This document shows positions 1,666 to 62,001 of a stretch of 64,000 nucleotides of DNA, one piece after another (position 1 is the stretch's first letter; each line of letters starts with the position of its first letter). The stretch comes from an uncultured Methanosarcinales archaeon (GTDB lineage Archaea; Nanobdellota; Nanobdellia; Woesearchaeales; DSVV01), in the NCBI GenBank assembly GCA_964385055.1, contig CAYLMH010000001.1, positions 30,111-94,110 of the forward strand, read 5' to 3'. A program made the translations under genes and the position numbers. The notes beneath the pieces were generated by a model that was not told the DNA's origin, did not search any database, and worked only from the letters and a program-made list of their open reading frames with translations.

Positions 1666-2721
1666 ATGGGAGAAATCAATGCAACAGCATTACGACAAGC
1701 ATTTATTGACACTGCGCTTGCAGCAGATGATGCGTTAGCGCAAACAATTCCCGCAATCGCGCAAGGAATTAGTTACCGCCCACAAGTCTCACAAGCAGTT
1801 GCAGAAGTGCTAGGACCAATGGAACTAGAAACCGCTGCAGATGTAAATTCTCTTCTTGTTTCAATTGCATTGCTTGACCATCGTCTTCACGAACAAGGAA
1901 TAAGATACAACCTTGTAGGTGAAGAAAAGAAAAACAGAGACACAGCACAAAAATTAGCAGAAAGACTTCGTGCGTATGATCCTTCTGGCAATGCACCATT
2001 CGATCTTGTTATTGATCCGCTTGACAGTACGAATAATGGTCTTCACGGATTTCCACATGGATACATGCTTTCGCTATTGGAGGCACAAACAGGAACAAGC
2101 CCAGCAATTCCAAGAGCAGGTCTTGAAGAACGATTAGTAAAACCAATAATGGCGCTTGTTTCCAGCAGAACAGAAGGAGAATTATTTGTTGGAGATGGAA
2201 TAAATAACAGAGCGTATAAGATTTTATTAAATCGCGAAGGGGGAAGATGGTCATATCATGCAGCATGTCCAGAAGCTCCCCTTATTGTGGGAAGACAAAC
2301 AGAAATCGACGGCATTTCTATCAATTTTGATGATCGTGGGCATTATCATGGAACACGCCTTGCAGCATTGCAAGAACGATTTGTGCAAGGAAAACTCCTT
2401 GTTAGAATATTTGGAGCATCAGGATATCAACTTCCAAAGCTGGCAGATGCGCACAATGCAAGAGGACTAGGCGCAGCTGTTGAAGTACTAACAAAACCAC
2501 ATGACGTTATTCCTCCAGGAGTTATTCTGACAATTGCAGGAGGATATGTCAAACGCTGGGGACCAGAAGTTGCAGACTGGGCAGAAGAACAAAGAGCATT
2601 CTTCAGATATAATCCTACACGTGGATTTGAATATCACACCAGCTATGCAAACATGAATGGTGGCCTTATTGCGGGAAATAGAACAATTGTTGACAAGCTT
2701 GCAGCAGTTTTAGAGAAATAA
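1666..2721 (+). CDS. IMPase/FBPase-fold sugar phosphatase (inositol monophosphatase family-like)
   Basis: It has a DPLDSTNN motif (IMPase DP(I/L)DGT) and an upstream GEEK acidic motif (IMPase metal-binding EE). Its position between heptose-pathway genes suggests a sugar-phosphate phosphatase role. Confidence 0.45.
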   Translation: MGEINATALRQAFIDTALAADDALAQTIPAIAQGISYRPQVSQAVAEVLGPMELETAADVNSLLVSIALLDHRLHEQGIRYNLVGEEKKNRDTAQKLAERLRAYDPSGNAPFDLVIDPLDSTNNGLHGFPHGYMLSLLEAQTGTSPAIPRAGLEERLVKPIMALVSSRTEGELFVGDGINNRAYKILLNREGGRWSYHAACPEAPLIVGRQTEIDGISINFDDRGHYHGTRLAALQERFVQGKLLVRIFGASGYQLPKLADAHNARGLGAAVEVLTKPHDVIPPGVILTIAGGYVKRWGPEVADWAEEQRAFFRYNPTRGFEYHTSYANMNGGLIAGNRTIVDKLAAVLEK

Positions 2722-7038: not shown

Positions 7039-7758
7039 ATGACTGGAAAAGAAGAGAAAGATCATAAGATAAGCGTCATTATTCCTGTGTTTAATGAAGA
7101 AAACTGTATTTTAGAAATATATAATAAAGTAAAAGAAGCAAATATAGGAAACATAAAAAAAGAAATAATTATTGTTGATGATTGTTCTACAGACAAAACA
7201 GCAGAGAGAATAAAAGAAATAAAAGATAAAGAAGTGAAAATACTGTTCCATGAAAAGAATTATGGAAAAGGAAGAGCAATAAGAACAGGATTAAAAGAAG
7301 TCACCGGAGACATCATTATAATACAGGATGCAGACTTGGAATATGACCCAAACGATTTTCAAATACTTATAAAACCAATCCTTGAAGGAAAAGCTGAAGT
7401 GGTTTATGGATCAAGAAGACTAAACAAGGAAAATGAACAATACGCTGGACTCTCGTACTATGTTGGAGGAATAGGGCTGACCAAAATAACAAACATGTTG
7501 TACAATAGCCACCTCACCGATGAAGCAACAGGATATAAAGTATTCAAAACAGAGCTTCTTCAGAGTCTTAACCTTGAATGTGAAAGATTTGAATTTTGCC
7601 CAGAAGTAACTGCAAAAGTGCTGAGAAGAAAGAAGAACATAGTAGAAGTTCCAATTAACTATTATCCGAGAAGCATAAAGGAAGGAAAGAAGATTCGCTT
7701 TAAAGATGGCTTTGAAGCAGTCTGGACGCTACTTAAATGGCGTTGGAAAAAGTTCTAA
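7039..7758 (+). CDS. GT2 glycosyltransferase (dolichyl-phosphate sugar synthase, DPM1/AglJ-like)
   Basis: ISVIIPVFNEE..IIIVDDCSTDKT..IIQDADLEYDP are GT2 signatures (DxD region), with a DPM1-like architecture. Confidence 0.85.
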   Translation: MTGKEEKDHKISVIIPVFNEENCILEIYNKVKEANIGNIKKEIIIVDDCSTDKTAERIKEIKDKEVKILFHEKNYGKGRAIRTGLKEVTGDIIIIQDADLEYDPNDFQILIKPILEGKAEVVYGSRRLNKENEQYAGLSYYVGGIGLTKITNMLYNSHLTDEATGYKVFKTELLQSLNLECERFEFCPEVTAKVLRRKKNIVEVPINYYPRSIKEGKKIRFKDGFEAVWTLLKWRWKKF

Positions 7759-41277: not shown

Positions 41278-41742
41278 AAAACAAAAGAACAAAAGTCGCT
41301 ATAAAAAACTTGTGCATGAAAGGATTTTCTATGAAAGAATGCCAACAACAACAATGGCATAGGGAAAAACACGCACCAGAATCGAAAAAGAATCGCTCAG
41401 CAAAGACCTACTACACAATTTATCTATTTTTTATTAAGAGAATGAAAAAAGACAAAGAAAGTAAGTGGAAAGATTTGATGAGAATAATGAAAAAGAAGGA
41501 ACAGCTATCCATGGTTCCCACACAACAGTGCAGTACAACATGGAACGTGGGTGTTCTTGACGGCTGTGTTCGAAATGGGAACAGGTAGAGCCACACCACT
41601 ATGGCCGTTCACGAATATGTGGATAACGGGTTTATTTATAAAGGTTTTGTAAAATCAAAGAAAACGCACCTAAAAAAGAACAAGACAACCCATAGAATCA
41701 AACATCATAACCTATATAAATGCTCCAAAGCCTCTCCGTCTG

Positions 41743-57077: not shown

Positions 57078-57252
57078 GAGAAAATGCAGCAGTGATATAT
57101 AAGAGTTTTGTGAGAGAGAAAGTGAAAAAAGCACAAATGGGGGAACTATGACTTTTTTGTCCTAAAATACGCATAAAATTTAAATGAAACTACTGCTTTA
57201 TAGGAGTAAATAAGAGAATATTGTCATAGAAAGAAGGATATCATATAGAAAG

Positions 57253-57262: not shown

Positions 57263-57278
57263 AACAAACGTGAGAAAA

Positions 57279-58049
57279 ATGGTAGCAAACTTAGAATCAA
57301 GAATAGGTGAACAAATGTCAGGCGGACACGGAGCAGCGCATGGGGATCATGGTGGCCATGGCGCTAAAAAAGGCGGTAAAAGAAAGACGCACGAAGTAGA
57401 GAAAGAACACCAAGAATTTTATGACAATATTCTTGAAGAAGCGTTTGACTGGGATTGGCATAGAAACACAACACATAAACATAATGATGCATACATCACT
57501 GCGCTCCAAGAAGTAAAAGGAAAGAAAGACATAGTCGATCGGTTTTCTGCTGAGGAAGCACTTGTTGATGCCATTATCAAATATAGAACAGAAGCAGGGC
57601 TTCCGGTGAGTAAAGATGCAGAGCATCGACATCATATATACCAAGAAGCGAGAGAATTGCTAGAAGCATATGAAAAAGAAAACAAAACGTCTGTTGATAA
57701 TTTAATAAAAGAAGGAAATCTCTATAAGCTGCTTGATGCATTCCATGAAAAGGAAAAAGGAGAAAATATAGGGAAAAAAGTGAATTATGAATTAAATAAA
57801 AGATTACCACATGGTAAAGATCCTGATTTTTATCAAGGTGTCCTTAAAGCACATGGAAACTACACAGGACAACACTTAAGCAAAGGAAAACTTGCAAAAT
57901 TCGGAACAAGAGAAGGACTAATTAATGCATTCTCCACACTGTATGGGTCAGAAATGAACAGAATGCTTGAAGAATATGTCAAAGCAGAAGAAGGGCATGC
58001 AGATCACGGACACAGCGGTGGTCATGGTGGCGGTCACGGCGGACATTAA
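57279..58049 (+). CDS. Hypothetical protein with His/Gly-rich N- and C-terminal tails (putative metal-binding)
   Basis: N-terminus SGGHGAAHGDHGGHGAKKGG and C-terminus EGHADHGHSGGHGGGHGGH, with a central helical domain and no family. Confidence 0.5.
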   Translation: MVANLESRIGEQMSGGHGAAHGDHGGHGAKKGGKRKTHEVEKEHQEFYDNILEEAFDWDWHRNTTHKHNDAYITALQEVKGKKDIVDRFSAEEALVDAIIKYRTEAGLPVSKDAEHRHHIYQEARELLEAYEKENKTSVDNLIKEGNLYKLLDAFHEKEKGENIGKKVNYELNKRLPHGKDPDFYQGVLKAHGNYTGQHLSKGKLAKFGTREGLINAFSTLYGSEMNRMLEEYVKAEEGHADHGHSGGHGGGHGGH

Positions 58050-58861: not shown

Positions 58862-60139
58862 ATGCTGAGCATTCAACTAATCCGAAAAAATCCAGAAATT
58901 GTAAGGGCAGACCTTGAAAAAAGAAATGACAAAGAAAAACTTCAATTCTTAGAAAAGATTATTGCATTGGACAATACATACAGAGAAAATCTTTTGGGAA
59001 TAGAAGCGCTCCGTGCAAAAAGAAATGAAATCTCAAGAGAAGTAGGCAAAATCAAGAAAGCAGGAGGAGATGCAGCCGCACTGTTGGCAGAAGCAGCAAA
59101 AATCCCCCTCCAAATTGAAACAAAAGAAGTAGAACAACAACATATCAAAGATGAAGTAGATTATTATCTTAAACGTTTGCCAAATATCCTGCATGAATCT
59201 GTTCCCGTCGGCGCAGACGACACAAAGAATGTCGTAGTAGGAGAGTTTGGAAAAAAACAAACAAGCGCATTTCCACTGAAAAGCCATGTAGATTTACTAA
59301 CAGAAAACAATTGGGCAGATCTCGAACGAGGAGCGAAAATCGCAGGAGCAAGACAGTACTTCCTCAAAGGAGACCTTGTTCTTTTAGATATGGCAATTCA
59401 GCGATATGCAATGGATTTTATGGACAAAAAAGGATTCCTTCTCCTTTACCCTCCGTTTATGATGCATCGAGATGTCTATGAAGGAGTAACAGATATTGCG
59501 GATTTTGAACATGTGATGTACAAAATTCAAGGAGAAGATCTCTATCTCATTGCAACGTCGGAGCATCCGATGATTGGGATGTTCCAAAATGAAATCTTTG
59601 AACCAACACAGTTACCAATGAAACATGTTGGCATAAGCGCGTGTTTTCGAAAAGAAGCAGGAGCGCATGGAAAAGATCAGAAAGGAATCTTCCGCGTCCA
59701 TCAGTTTAACAAAATTGAGCAAATAGTAATCTGCCAACCAGAAGAAAGCTGGAAATTGCATGAAGAACTTCTAGAAAATGCAAAAGAATTTTTCCAATCA
59801 TTAGGATTCCATTTCCGCATTGTCAACATTTGTACAGGAGATATTGGAACAGTTGCGGCAAAAAAATATGATATTGAAGTATGGTATCCAGTGCAAAATG
59901 CATATAGAGAAGTAGTTTCTGCAAGCAACTGCACGGATTATCAGGCACGACGATTAGGCATGCGTGTCAGAGGAAAAGAAGAAAATTATCCTCCTCATAC
60001 ATTAAATTCAACCTGCGTTGCAACAAGCAGAGCAATAGTTGCAATCCTAGAAAACTTCCAGCAAAAAGATGGATCAGTAAAGATTCCTGATGTGCTTGTA
60101 CCGTATATGAATGGAAAGAGAACTCTAGAGAAAAAATAA
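58862..60139 (+). CDS. serS: Seryl-tRNA synthetase
   Basis: N-terminal coiled coil, class II motifs (..FRKEAGAHGKDQKGIFRVHQF.., GDIG) and the SerRS architecture. Confidence 0.95.
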   Translation: MLSIQLIRKNPEIVRADLEKRNDKEKLQFLEKIIALDNTYRENLLGIEALRAKRNEISREVGKIKKAGGDAAALLAEAAKIPLQIETKEVEQQHIKDEVDYYLKRLPNILHESVPVGADDTKNVVVGEFGKKQTSAFPLKSHVDLLTENNWADLERGAKIAGARQYFLKGDLVLLDMAIQRYAMDFMDKKGFLLLYPPFMMHRDVYEGVTDIADFEHVMYKIQGEDLYLIATSEHPMIGMFQNEIFEPTQLPMKHVGISACFRKEAGAHGKDQKGIFRVHQFNKIEQIVICQPEESWKLHEELLENAKEFFQSLGFHFRIVNICTGDIGTVAAKKYDIEVWYPVQNAYREVVSASNCTDYQARRLGMRVRGKEENYPPHTLNSTCVATSRAIVAILENFQQKDGSVKIPDVLVPYMNGKRTLEKK

Positions 60140-60203: not shown

Positions 60204-60719
60204 ATGGCAAAGAAATCAATTGGAGACATTAATGGCTGGGTCTTTATCGGTGTTGGTTTTGTCGTCATGGCAGTTTCTATATTTTTCTATGACACATTAA
60301 AGATATTTATTGCGCTTGGAGGCCTTATGACACTCTATGGCCTTGGTAAATTATCGTATGATAATCTAAAAGCAAAAATATTTCCGAAAGATGAAGAAGA
60401 AGGCCCTGTTGATTTAAATAAAGCGCAAAATCCGTATTTGCAGCAAAAAGCTGCGCAAAGACCGCAACAAGCAGCACAGCAAATACAACAGCATCAAGCT
60501 GCGCATCCAACACAGCAACAAAGAGCGCAGCATCAAGTCCATCCTCAACATCGGCAAAGTCAACAAGTACAATATGCACATCCACAACGAACACAGGTGC
60601 AACACAGAGCTGTGCATCCACAACAACATCAAAATCAAGGAAGATACTGTCATAGCTGCGGTGCAGCAAAGCAACCACATCACAGGTTCTGTGCGAATTG
60701 TGGGACGAGACTTGGATAA
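60204..60719 (+). CDS. Membrane-anchored protein with a Gln/His-rich low-complexity region and a C-terminal zinc ribbon
   Basis: Two N-terminal TM helices, a Q/H-rich repeat tract (QQAAQQIQQHQAAHPTQQQRAQHQVHPQHRQ..), and C-terminal CHSCGAAKQPHHRFCANCGTRL. Confidence 0.5.
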   Translation: MAKKSIGDINGWVFIGVGFVVMAVSIFFYDTLKIFIALGGLMTLYGLGKLSYDNLKAKIFPKDEEEGPVDLNKAQNPYLQQKAAQRPQQAAQQIQQHQAAHPTQQQRAQHQVHPQHRQSQQVQYAHPQRTQVQHRAVHPQQHQNQGRYCHSCGAAKQPHHRFCANCGTRLG

Positions 60720-60933
60720 AGAAGTACGAATTTCTTAAATAAGCATAATGCAAAAAATAACAACAGTGGCGCCGACGCGACGGGGGTTGTCCCTTACGGG
60801 GTGTCGCGTAGGACATGGAACAAAGTGACATGTCCGTAGGCCGCCAATGTTGTTGTTATTTTTTGCTTATGAAATAAAAAATGAATAGTAAACGAACATA
60901 ATCCATATAAAGCACAAAAATCTTCTTTTTTTC
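60720..60933. promoter_or_regulatory. Candidate replication-origin (oriC) region and orc1/cdc6 promoter
   Basis: This intergenic region lies immediately upstream of orc1/cdc6. It has AT-rich flanks and a large dyad element. Archaeal origins usually abut orc1/cdc6. Confidence 0.3.
60751..60864. other. GC-rich structured ~114-bp element with ~15-nt AT-rich terminal inverted repeats (MITE-like insertion, candidate sRNA, or origin-associated hairpin)
   Basis: The 5' arm aaaaaataacaacag..ggcg pairs with the 3' arm cgcc..attgttgttgttatttttt (about 14 bp plus 4 GC bp). The 80-nt core (60766-60845) holds two internal hairpins: cgcgac/gtcgcg (6 bp), and ggacatg/catgtcc (7 bp, 11-nt loop). The local GC is far above the flanking DNA. 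Confidence 0.5.
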
Positions 60934-62001
60934 ATGGGTTTATTCGATACAATGTTGAAATCAGGAGAGAGTATTTTCCTCAATGAGCTTGCGTTAGATT
61001 TCTCCTTCCAGCCAAAACTCCTCCTCCATCGGGAAAATGAGCAATTCACCATCGCAAATTCGATTAGACCATTATTCAGCGAGCGAACAGGGAAAAATAT
61101 TATGCTTCATGGCAAGCCAGGAATTGGAAAAACACTCGCAGTGCTCCATGTATTTAGAGAACTTGAAGAGCAGCATGAAGAAATTCTTCCAGTCTATGTC
61201 AATTGCTGGCAAAATAACAGCACCTACAAAATCGCAATCGCCCTGTGCGAAGCAGTGAACTACAAATTCTATCAAAATAAAAAAACGCATGAAATTTTCA
61301 AAGATCTCGAAAACACCTTTAACAAAAACTGTGTCGCGTTTTGTTTTGATGAAGTGGATAAATTGGAAGATTTTGATTTTCTTTACACGCTTTTAGAAAA
61401 TGTGTTCAAAAAAACAGTAATTCTCATCTCTAATTACAAGGAATGGTTTACAGGACTAGACGAACGAATTCGTTCAAGACTCAGACCAGAATTGTTAGAG
61501 TTCAAAGAGTATAACACGCAAGAAATAAAAGATATTCTCGAACAGCGAAAAGGATTTGCATTCAAACCAGGAGTTCTGCAAGATGACGCATTTGAAGTCA
61601 TTTTACAACACACCATTCAGCAAAAAGATATTCGTGCGGGTTTGCATTTAATGCGCCAGAGCGCAGAAGCTGCAGAAGAAGCAAGCTCACGAATCATTAC
61701 CGCAAACCACGTCACCGCAGTCTTAGATAAAGGTGCAGAGGGATACAACAAAGAACCACTCGAATTAGATGAAGATTGCAGAGCAGTTCTTGAACTTGTG
61801 AAAGCAAACAGTGGCATAAAAATCGGCGATCTCTTCAAGAAGTATGAAGAGACAGGAGGAAAACAATCTTACAAAACATTTGTCAGAAAAGTGCAAACCC
61901 TCGGATTTGGAGGCTTTGTTTCCTTAAAGAGAGTCGTTGGTGCTGGTGGAAATAGTACACTCGTGTATCATCAGAATATAAAGAGATTAGATGAGTTCTA
62001 A
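60934..62001 (+). CDS. cdc6: Orc1/Cdc6 replication initiator (AAA+ with a C-terminal winged helix)
   Basis: Walker A LHGKPGIGKTLAV and Walker B CFDEVD, with a C-terminal wH domain. Confidence 0.9.
   Translation: MGLFDTMLKSGESIFLNELALDFSFQPKLLLHRENEQFTIANSIRPLFSERTGKNIMLHGKPGIGKTLAVLHVFRELEEQHEEILPVYVNCWQNNSTYKIAIALCEAVNYKFYQNKKTHEIFKDLENTFNKNCVAFCFDEVDKLEDFDFLYTLLENVFKKTVILISNYKEWFTGLDERIRSRLRPELLEFKEYNTQEIKDILEQRKGFAFKPGVLQDDAFEVILQHTIQQKDIRAGLHLMRQSAEAAEEASSRIITANHVTAVLDKGAEGYNKEPLELDEDCRAVLELVKANSGIKIGDLFKKYEETGGKQSYKTFVRKVQTLGFGGFVSLKRVVGAGGNSTLVYHQNIKRLDEF

Follow-up and report, generated by a model that had tools for sequence, protein, structure and literature searches.

Miniature inverted-repeat transposable elements (MITEs), the Correia elements of Neisseria and the repetitive extragenic palindromic (REP) and enterobacterial repetitive intergenic consensus (ERIC) sequences of enterobacteria are short non-coding sequences that are bounded by inverted repeats and can form a long hairpin; they lie between genes, are present or absent between close relatives, are akin to families of insertion sequences (ISs) and possibly carry terminator-like signals. 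A second group of systems comprises the omega RNA or reRNA of the IS200/IS605-TnpB elements and the bridge RNA of IS110, where a structured RNA takes up the non-coding part at one end of an IS, in the orientation of the transposase gene, and is still present in derivatives without this gene. We know of no such RNA for transposases of the DDE_Tnp_1 type and, to our knowledge, almost no non-coding RNAs (ncRNAs) beyond the universal ones have been described in the DPANN archaea, whose genomes are tiny and tightly packed. Here, we analyse an element at positions 60750-60866 of a stretch of 64,000 nucleotides (nt) from contig CAYLMH010000001.1 of an uncultured archaeon (hereafter the window), which is located upstream of an orc1/cdc6 gene and belongs to a group of sequences sharing the above features with both kinds of systems. 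With a probability of roughly 60%, the element is a recent solitary copy of a large family of structured, RNA-like modules that is associated with mobile elements of Woesearchaeota and Nanoarchaeota (DPANN) and is absent from Rfam 15. The module occurs in intergenic DNA, either alone or in divergent pairs, and is a fixed component at the 3' end of an abundant IS, and its motif hairpin is found in MITEs with the same IS ends; thus, the family spans the boundary between mobile DNA and structured RNA.

Only one pair of perfect inverted repeats of at least 14 nt with arms no more than 400 nt apart exists in the window, that is, the AT-rich 16-bp repeat GCAAAAAATAACAACA (60750-60765) / TGTTGTTATTTTTTGC (60851-60866) with 100% complementarity, which reaches about 21 bp when one bulge is allowed (60745-60870) and can form the long closing stem that an earlier reading, made from the letters of the window alone (the sequence-only reading), had proposed. 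The 85 nt between the arms hold a GC-rich core, and nowhere else in the 64 kb than in the region 60766-60845 does a 70-nt stretch reach 62% GC. The GC content of the core (63%), which had been called very high, is high only in relation to the genome (window mean, 37.7%; 5S rRNA gene in the window, 51%). The plus strand has a minimum free energy (MFE) of -50.8 kcal/mol (z = -5.78; 0 of 200 shuffled sequences were equally stable) and the minus strand one of -43.6 kcal/mol (z = -5.0). The plus-strand fold is a three-way junction composed of the helices P0, P1, P2 and P3, and it includes both of the internal hairpins recognised earlier, GCGAC..GUCGC (60777-60807) and GGACAUG..CAUGUCC (60811-60835). 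Modules of this kind are discrete units of about 105-117 nt with an inverted repeat as their boundary, and the unit in the window measures 117-126 bp. Its parts, together with a sequence that precedes it, are as follows (L076 is the nearest relative of the element).

60734-60743, plus strand: putative TATA-like sequence CTTAAATAAG, 22 nt before G60766, weak, failing the strict local TATA consensus
60745-60765, plus strand: A-rich 5' arm of P0, perfect over the 16 nt 60750-60765 and extended to 60745 with a bulged T; the helix covaries
60767-60776, plus strand: 5' strand of the closing stem P1, U-GGCGCCGAC, with GGC invariant in the family
60777-60781, plus strand: 5' strand of P2, GCGAC, with compensatory changes in four of five pairs (GGGGC/GCCCC in L076)
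60782-60802, plus strand: conserved apical motif of P2, GGGGGUUGUCCCUUACGGGG plus U, whose exact 20-mer is found in at least 120 metagenome contigs and 0 viral ones
60803-60807, plus strand: 3' strand of P2, GUCGC, included in the covariation analysis
60808-60810, plus strand: junction GUA, part of the conserved GUAGG, with nearly invariant alignment columns
60811-60835, plus strand: P3 hairpin GGACAUG with tandem G·A, AC/GU and an AAA loop; of variable length and sequence in the family, with a conserved GG/CC base
60836-60846, plus strand: 3' strand of P1, GUAGGCCGCC-A, with the bulged C60841; a single bulged base at this place is conserved in the family
60847-60849, plus strand: AUG, bulged out of the 3' strand where P1 meets P0; an asymmetry of 3-4 nt recurs here in other members
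60850-60870, plus strand: U-rich 3' arm of P0, holding a T6 run (60859-60864), an archaeal terminator-like signal

In the apical motif of P2, the purine-rich GGGGGUUG forms an internal loop on the 5' side and is followed by UCCC-UUAC-GGGG, a hairpin of 4 bp, and by a single U without a partner. In the window, P1 pairs as GGCGCCGAC / GUAGG-C-CGCC with C60841 bulged, a variant with a G·A mismatch that the element has in common with L076 and L044, and P3 reads GGACAUG-GA-AC-AAA-GU-GA-CAUGUCC, with tandem G·A pairs. The spacer holding the element is 214 nt long and belongs to the largest truly non-coding stretches of the window, where other spacers are tiny; the 'large non-coding gaps' seen elsewhere in a quick map of open reading frames (ORFs) turned out to be coding on closer look. 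A 20-codon ORF (60815-60877, plus strand, ATG at 60815; MEQSDMSVGRQCCCYFLLMK) falls within the variable P3 and the trailer, has no conserved counterpart in other members and is probably meaningless.

Covariation was scored on an alignment (A2) of 20 sequences, the members being chosen by us, under the three-way-junction structure and with slid partners and shuffles as controls. Standard pairs occupied 81% of the pair cells (30-56% with slid partners), 105 cells were changed on both sides (14-50 with slid partners) and the covariation score was 0.384 (at most 0.142 with slid partners), while 0 of 500 shuffles reached the observed values. Compensatory changes were found in 19 of the 29 pairs, including all nine scored pairs of P0, the arms of which read, for example, AAAAACCACC/GGUGGUUUUU, AAAUCCAGCC/GGCUGGAUUU and, in the window, AAUAACAAC/GUUGUUAUU. 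Since the AT-rich arms differ between the copies yet covary, they represent a structural helix and not transposase-binding ends. The paired positions therefore do covary, which is the check that the sequence-only reading had set beforehand, and the structure is, judging from the aligned sequences, under selection, including the parts that had been described as terminal inverted repeats.

Moreover, several features point to one strand. The non-canonical cells in the core helices are G·A or A·G in 33 cases and C·U in 1 (45 versus 10 overall), and one pair alternates between A-U and G·U, with G·U in six sequences. The apices of P3, of the form GA-RC-(AAA/GAA/GAAA/GUAA)-GY-GA, contain tandem sheared G·A pairs and GNRA-type loops on the plus strand only. 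Variant apices of P2 carry UNCG loops (CUCC-UUCG-GGAG and CUCC-UGCG-GGAG), again on the plus strand only, and show C-G to U-A covariation, which together support a 4-bp capped hairpin after an 8-nt purine loop with the consensus RRGGGWYG. Furthermore, the MFE of the plus strand is the lower one in 25 of 27 members of class 1 (described below), about 2-3 kcal/mol of the difference coming from the motif itself. From these features we conclude that the plus strand, which in the window is also the strand of the flanking genes, appears to be the functional one, as RNA or, less likely, as single-stranded DNA. Of the identities proposed earlier, a small structured RNA is thus supported by both the covariation in the family and the strand-specific RNA features.

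The members were collected with the 20-mer GGGGGTTGTCCCTTACGGGG from the apex of the first hairpin, which occurs in at least 120 metagenome contigs and in 0 of 2.9 million viral contigs, against about 2 matches expected by chance (our own rough estimate for an assumed collection size). Earlier scans of viral contigs gave nothing, and neither did a scan of metagenomes with the loop of the second hairpin and a degenerate stem, in the latter case because P3 is variable. A viral, phage or plasmid origin of the element was rejected, since five scans of viral contigs and BLAST against phages and plasmids matched its AT-rich flanks alone. According to their flanks, the 20-mer matches fall into two classes. 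Class 1 comprises about 30 loci including the window element and has one architecture throughout, that is, (A/U)UGGCG-NNN-GAC, the P2 motif plus U, GUAGG, the variable P3 and CCGUC-NNN-GCC, framed by an A-rich leader and a U-rich trailer that are complementary to each other; class 2 has the same motif hairpin within a larger scaffold of 120-170 nt. All parts of the class 1 layout are present in the window element: 60745-60765 pairs with 60850-60870 in a basal helix, which in the family is AT-rich or simply complementary, the closing stem has the form GGCG-NNN-GAC .. GUC-NNN-(bulged base)-GCC, the exact GGGGGUUGUCCCUUACGGGG-U lies at 60782-60802 (the variant form being RRGGGWYG plus the capped 4-bp hairpin), and the GUAGG junction and the GG/CC base of P3 are found. 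Independent members score 60-110 bits with the covariance model R1 of the family. The hosts are archaea, as their neighbouring genes include those for L15e, S3Ae, S27e, L44e, eIF2-alpha and archaeal RNase P RNA. The functions of the neighbouring genes are unrelated (L15e, S3Ae, RFC, phosphofructokinase, dehydrogenases, a deacetylase), and no conserved protein neighbour was detected except glutamyl-tRNA synthetase (GluRS) at 5-6 class 2 loci. In the library searched, no paper was found that contains the motif sequence or describes MITEs or such RNAs in DPANN archaea.

The link to mobile elements comes from L076, which matches the window across 60751-60867 only, with 80% identity and unrelated flanks, so that the homology stops at the ends of the inverted repeat. 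Between the two copies there are two compensatory pair changes and no disrupted pair in P2, and P3 is replaced; such compensatory changes since the split from the IS-borne copy indicate continued selection on pairing. The L076 module is inside a multi-copy DDE insertion sequence of Woesearchaeota/Nanoarchaeota, which is organised in the order 9-bp target-site duplication (TSD; GGATGAACC), terminal inverted repeat (TIR; GGCTCCATCCAAAAATT), gene for a transposase of 315 amino acids (aa), 50 nt, module, 21 nt, TIR and TSD. The transposase belongs to Pfam DDE_Tnp_1 (E = 4e-20), and the module is co-oriented with its gene. The identical IS with its module is located in several contigs with different flanks (L076, L147-L152), and the module is placed between the stop codon of the transposase gene and the right TIR in L076, L147-L152, L135-L144 and L153. 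The transposase family contains 506 proteins at E<1e-20, some of which are labelled Woesearchaeota or Nanoarchaeota. In the IS subfamily P0176 (at least 24 contigs, adjoining archaeal ribosomal protein genes), the module has the same P0, P1 and P3 and a plain P2; in the subfamily P0124 (L153), which comes from the same run series as the relatives with 95% identical Orc1, the apex of P2 is GAGCGAUGGCUCCUGCGGAGU. Unlike the omega/reRNA and the bridge RNA, the module goes with a DDE transposase, has no evident guide-like loops for IS ends or targets, is missing in some IS relatives (L145, L146) and has many copies outside any IS.

In addition, the class 2b elements, 162-172 nt in length, have the same TIR (GGCTTCATCCAAAAAAT in L091), flanking direct repeats of 8-10 bp and the motif hairpin. 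The IS TIR, the direct repeats and the near-identical copies at different sites identify them as MITEs of this IS family:

L019, L023, L031, L035, L049, L052, L091, L104, L120 and L133: class 2b MITEs with ends like GGCTTCATCCAAA or GGCTCTGTAGAAAAT

The ends of these MITEs had been likened to those of IS6/IS26, and this was dropped once the parent-type IS with DDE_Tnp_1 transposase and the TIR GGCTYCATCCAAAAA was found. In L023, the MITE precedes by about 80 nt a gene for archaeal RNase P RNA (61 bits, E = 3e-15) that is truncated by the contig end. Clustering of ISs was also noticed: tandem copies of the DDE IS lie 9 nt apart in L142 (1-80), and the IS stands beside rve/IS240-type transposase genes in L141 (91-954) and L145 (397-1131), suggesting insertion hot spots in these DPANN genomes.

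As for the window copy, there is no transposase gene nearby, and the IS end GGCTYCATCCAAA is not found in the window beyond chance; thus, it is homologous to the IS-borne module and not itself IS-borne. The same IS end is absent from the 120 nt past the other 31 non-IS-borne copies tested (one weak match with 2 mismatches). The genes around the element (Pfam assignments taken from homologous loci) encode seryl-tRNA synthetase (58862-60139), a Gln-rich membrane/Zn-ribbon protein (60204-60719), Orc1/Cdc6 (60934-62001) and, on the opposite strand, subunits D and B of the V-type ATPase. A search with the Orc1 protein placed the lineage among the Woesearchaeota (DPANN). This protein shares 95% identity with P0001, in which the Pfam domains AAA_16 and Cdc6_lid are present, and the location upstream of orc1/cdc6 given in the sequence-only reading is correct, the ORF starting at 60934. 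The order from the Zn-ribbon gene to orc1 is kept in five loci of relatives (L012/L013, Orc1 95% identical; L014, 83%; L001/L002, 78%), in which the spacer between the two genes has just 41-65 nt (41 nt in the relatives with 95% identical Orc1) and the element is absent. The alignment of these loci (A1) gives the following features.

60720-60892, plus strand: extra segment of 173 nt absent from L012/L013, the site being empty in L012, L013, L014, L001 and L002; it fills the space between the end of the Zn-ribbon ORF and the orc1 promoter block CGAACA..ATATAAA-22 nt-ATG, which is conserved
60905-60911, plus strand: native TATA box of orc1, ATATAAA, separated by 22 nt from the start codon (60934) and present in each of the five relatives

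The element, which begins about 30 nt behind the Zn-ribbon gene and ends 67 nt 5' of orc1/cdc6, is hence a recent solitary insertion, and its site beside orc1 is incidental. Comparison of the orc1 upstream region in relatives, one of the checks proposed with the sequence-only reading, thereby also speaks against the origin-associated dyad that it had considered. An origin of replication or a regulatory dyad of orc1, such as an Orc1 site resembling the origin recognition boxes (ORBs) of archaeal oriC or an orc1 leader, would agree with the position next to orc1/cdc6, the dyad symmetry and a G-run loosely similar to ORBs. However, the absence of the element from five syntenic relatives, one with 95% identical Orc1 and a bare 41-nt spacer, leads us to reject it as extremely improbable. 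Archaeal oriC has repeated boxes around an unwinding element, whereas this element is single and not conserved in relatives, there are no repeated ORB-like boxes within 3 kb and no second copy nearby, and other family members adjoin unrelated genes. Furthermore, the native TATA box is retained downstream of the insertion, which places the element outside the leaderless orc1 transcript. For annotation, this means that a GC-rich dyad beside orc1 need not be a replication origin. The Zn-ribbon protein itself (60204-60719, plus strand; homologues in L012, L014, L001 and L002) is a small membrane protein. Its low-complexity linker is rich in Gln and His and differs strongly, in length as well as in sequence, among close relatives, and its C-terminus carries the CxxC..CxxC zinc ribbon.

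The MITE-like insertion proposed in the sequence-only reading is right in so far as the element is small, non-coding and missing at the orthologous site in five relatives, its closest homologue is in an IS and related MITEs share its motif; it does not hold for the ends, as sequence-conserved TIRs matching a parent IS and a TSD are lacking and the arms vary and covary. A MITE or relic acting purely at the DNA level, the repeats and hairpins of which would serve transposition only (as single-stranded DNA or a cruciform) with no RNA function, appears rather unlikely to us. The presence/absence polymorphism and the same unit in unrelated contexts would be expected of such an element, as would the ties to the DDE IS and to MITEs with 8-10-bp duplications, and one copy has received a group II intron, as happens in repeated non-essential DNA. 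Besides, AAATAAG / AAATAAA, the only direct repeat beside the extended inverted repeat in the window and a weak one in AT-rich DNA, could be an imperfect 6-bp duplication. However, the ends vary and covary while the interior is conserved, which is the reverse of ends recognised by a transposase and also distinguishes the module from MITEs, Correia, REP and ERIC sequences, in which the end sequences are conserved. About 25 solitary copies have no consistent duplication and no IS end near them, and class 1 has neither TSDs nor any likeness to IS ends. The RNA-type tertiary motifs within a three-way junction, with their strand asymmetry (tandem G·A, GNRA and UNCG loops, G·U), set the module further apart from these DNA elements, and the compensatory changes since the divergence from the IS-borne copy argue in the same direction.

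We have also considered an ordinary trans-acting small-RNA gene of the host with its own promoter, which would have relocated and later been captured by the IS, the AT-rich arms being promoter and terminator DNA. TATA-like boxes about 22 nt before GGCG and the T-run after the module match the geometry of the 5S and orc1 genes of the window, where ATATAAA or TTATAAA is followed after 22 nt by the start and a comparable T5 run ends the 5S rRNA gene. The divergent pairs (1a/1b) resemble genes with a common AT-rich control region, the motif is absent from the 2.9 million viral contigs, and the P2 loop is strongly conserved. Nevertheless, this explanation is doubtful: promoter and terminator DNA does not need complementarity that is kept through compensatory changes, the strict local TATA consensus gives few boxes at the right distance, and the site is empty in close relatives. 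A scan with R1 of the window and the relatives' loci (153,883 bases) revealed no further copy except a weak match of a different class in L014.

Several observations weigh against a mobile, structured RNA-like module. The window contains no second copy as judged by pattern search, BLAST and covariance model, and so the extra copies asked for in the sequence-only reading exist in metagenomes, with none further in this window. No consistent direct repeats that could be TSDs are found in about 25 solitary class 1 copies, and an IS terminal repeat is found neither at the window copy nor at about 30 similar solitary ones. The apparent invariance of the P2 motif is partly due to collecting the members by the exact 20-mer, and the R1 score of 104.7 bits at 60756-60861 (plus strand) comes from a model that has the window sequence itself in its seed. 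In the outer helix, G·U and A·C are about even (21:18 and 14:13), and a structure acting as single-stranded DNA would give the same covariation. In several copies, among them the one in the window with CTTAAATAAG, a TATA-like box about 22 nt ahead of GGCG would place the 5' arm of P0 outside the RNA, at odds with an RNA role for P0. In addition, the downstream neighbour has the orientation of the module in 18 of 23 cases (p of about 0.01 in a two-sided binomial test of our own) and the upstream neighbour in 11 of 22, and this excess (18:5 versus 11:11) does not fit a simple role at the 3' end of transcripts.

If the mobile-module explanation is right, the module would be copied between loci as a self-contained unit, with insertion sequences as at least one vehicle. 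The plus strand would be transcribed either as a 3' extension of a co-oriented upstream gene or under a promoter of the module itself. Within the IS, the module could form the 3' end of the transposase transcript (about 50 nt behind the gene), and in the window it is probably part of a 3' extension of the Zn-ribbon gene transcript (about 30 nt behind the gene). Several copies, including the one in the window and those in ISs, begin 6-50 nt after a co-oriented stop codon. Transcription would then stop in the oligo-U tract of the 3' arm, where P0, locking both ends together, and the U tract may form a terminator-like, nuclease-resistant end, while the conserved purine-rich loop of P2, GGGGGUUG, would be displayed as a binding surface for a protein or another RNA. 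The P2 loop is Shine-Dalgarno-like, and a similar box GG(A/G)GGTG(G), followed by the small palindrome TAGCTTTAGCTA, occurs in IS copies 15-20 nt past the transposase stop codon and just before the module (L076, 600-640, minus strand; L137, 1108-1150; L153, 999-1040). A role as a terminator-like, protein-binding small RNA is our conjecture. With intrinsic terminators and archaeal oligo-T signals the module shares a long GC-containing helix followed by a T5-T7 run and, in the window and the IS, the position 30-50 nt past a co-oriented stop codon; however, its structure goes far beyond what termination requires, it often lies between divergent genes or upstream of a co-oriented gene, and GC-rich family members have no T-run. 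Around class 2 elements, the T-run counts are 6 versus 5.

More tentatively, the modules might constitute a new class of functional ncRNA that is carried and spread by DDE-type ISs in DPANN archaea, with a purine loop that might bind the ribosome or a conserved protein, and with the solitary and paired copies as domesticated or independently mobile derivatives. Control of transposase expression or a benefit to the element or the host would be possible roles, and it would be the first structured RNA partner of a DDE transposon known to us. If the RNA is functional, it would represent a new RNA motif, a conserved purine loop in a three-way junction, and maybe a new use of RNA by DDE transposons; if not, the module is still a marker of recent genome change in uncultivated archaea.

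Known RNA families were searched as well. Apart from the 5S rRNA gene, Rfam 15 matched nothing in the whole window at the gathering score and at E<=0.5, only noise in the AT-rich flanks was obtained for the element at E<=10, and 48 family loci gave only unrelated matches (a tRNA, a group II intron, RNase P); the covariance-model check proposed earlier thus returned no Rfam 15 match to the element. An aberrant tRNA gene, whether split, permuted or intron-containing, had come to mind from the 3' GCCGCCA, and a stretch of about 79 nt that is rich in GC, with 5' GGCGCC and 3' GGCCGCCA, in a window of 64 kb where ARAGORN detects no tRNA gene at all, would suit it. But ARAGORN is negative on the element with default, intron, relaxed-threshold and circular-permutation settings, as is the Rfam tRNA model at E<=10, in agreement with the failure of the sequence-only reading to fold a cloverleaf; neither a T-loop nor a D-loop consensus is seen, the fold has just two arms and a bulge-helix-bulge motif is absent. 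The family consensus GCCAUU shows the 'CCA' to be just part of a stem, and the chance of a tRNA gene is practically negligible. A bulge-helix-bulge site or circular RNA was dismissed because the two bulges share one strand and have 1-6 bp between them. H/ACA, C/D and K-turn RNAs, the hammerhead and other ribozymes were set aside, as the needed boxes or bulges are missing, and so was a riboswitch or T-box-like leader, given that the downstream genes are functionally unrelated and GluRS recurs only beside some class 2 copies.

The minus strand invites comparison with the S domain of the signal recognition particle (SRP) RNA (helices 5, 6 and 8). It, too, has a closing helix and two hairpins in the right order (a plain one, then the motif, as helix 6 and then helix 8), a GNAR-type tetraloop and an AGCA/ACAA-like segment, the motif reading CCCC-GUAA-GGG-ACAA-CCCCC; a paralogue reads CCCGGAUGGAGCAACCCC, close to the archaeal helix 8 sequence CCCGGAAGGGAGCAAC. 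In L014, moreover, a canonical ATATAAAT box precedes a related class 2 RNA by 19 nt on the minus-type strand. Such a minus-strand RNA is nonetheless very improbable, since none of the SRP models in Rfam hits a family member, even when short stretches are searched at E<=10, the symmetric loop of helix 8 would lack its 5' half (2 versus 9-10 unpaired bases, an asymmetric loop), and the G·A, GNRA and UNCG features and the folding energies favour the opposite strand. Furthermore, the module is mobile and multi-copy, and an essential single-copy RNA is unlikely to be missing from the syntenic site of sister genomes or to sit inside insertion sequences.

Eight contigs contain two class 1 copies on opposite strands whose neighbouring 5' ends overlap or are separated by 5-75 nt; one module of the pair has GGGGGUUGUCCCUUACGGGG and its partner a variant motif such as GGGGUUGCUCCAUCCGGG:

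L039, 2366-2576: back-to-back pair
L085, 2122-2450: back-to-back pair
L107, 109-332: back-to-back pair
L111, 1175-1379: back-to-back pair
L054, 1492-1730: back-to-back pair
L071, 2483-2701: back-to-back pair
L068, 1539-1718: back-to-back pair
L081, 10237-10440: back-to-back pair

The L071 member (2280-2700, minus strand) has a group II intron in its P3, for which Rfam recognises D1-D4 and domain V/VI with an ORF of 439 aa between them; the intron starts with GUGUG directly after ..AAGUGAG. The relative with 83% identical Orc1, L014, has two class-2-like elements elsewhere (7297-7401, plus strand; 2540-2650, minus strand). One of them, with the motif GGGGGCUGUCCCUUACGGGG, is directly upstream of an archease-RtcB gene pair, and the other, between a GTPase gene and an ORF of 201 aa, has the ATATAAAT box on the strand opposite to the favoured one. 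The GluRS gene (Pfam tRNA-synt_1c, E = 8e-72) is near the class 2 members L032/L129, L069, L104, L080 and L035 and starts 110-150 nt past the motif in two of them; this recurrence, together with the seryl-tRNA synthetase gene 600 nt upstream of the window element, is probably a coincidence.

Elsewhere in the window, a stand-alone 5S rRNA gene (41496-41612, minus strand; 64.9 bits in Rfam) has no 16S or 23S rRNA gene nearby; with a TTTATAAA box 22 nt before its first base and a T5 run right after its 3' end, it served as the local model of the promoter and terminator geometry of a stable RNA. A protein of 259 aa (57270-58049, plus strand) has Gly/His-rich tails at both ends (GGHGAAHGDHGGHG.. 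/ ..HADHGHSGGHGGGHGGH), and a 17-nt inverted repeat of 94% complementarity (57215-57231 / 57417-57433) straddles the start of its gene.

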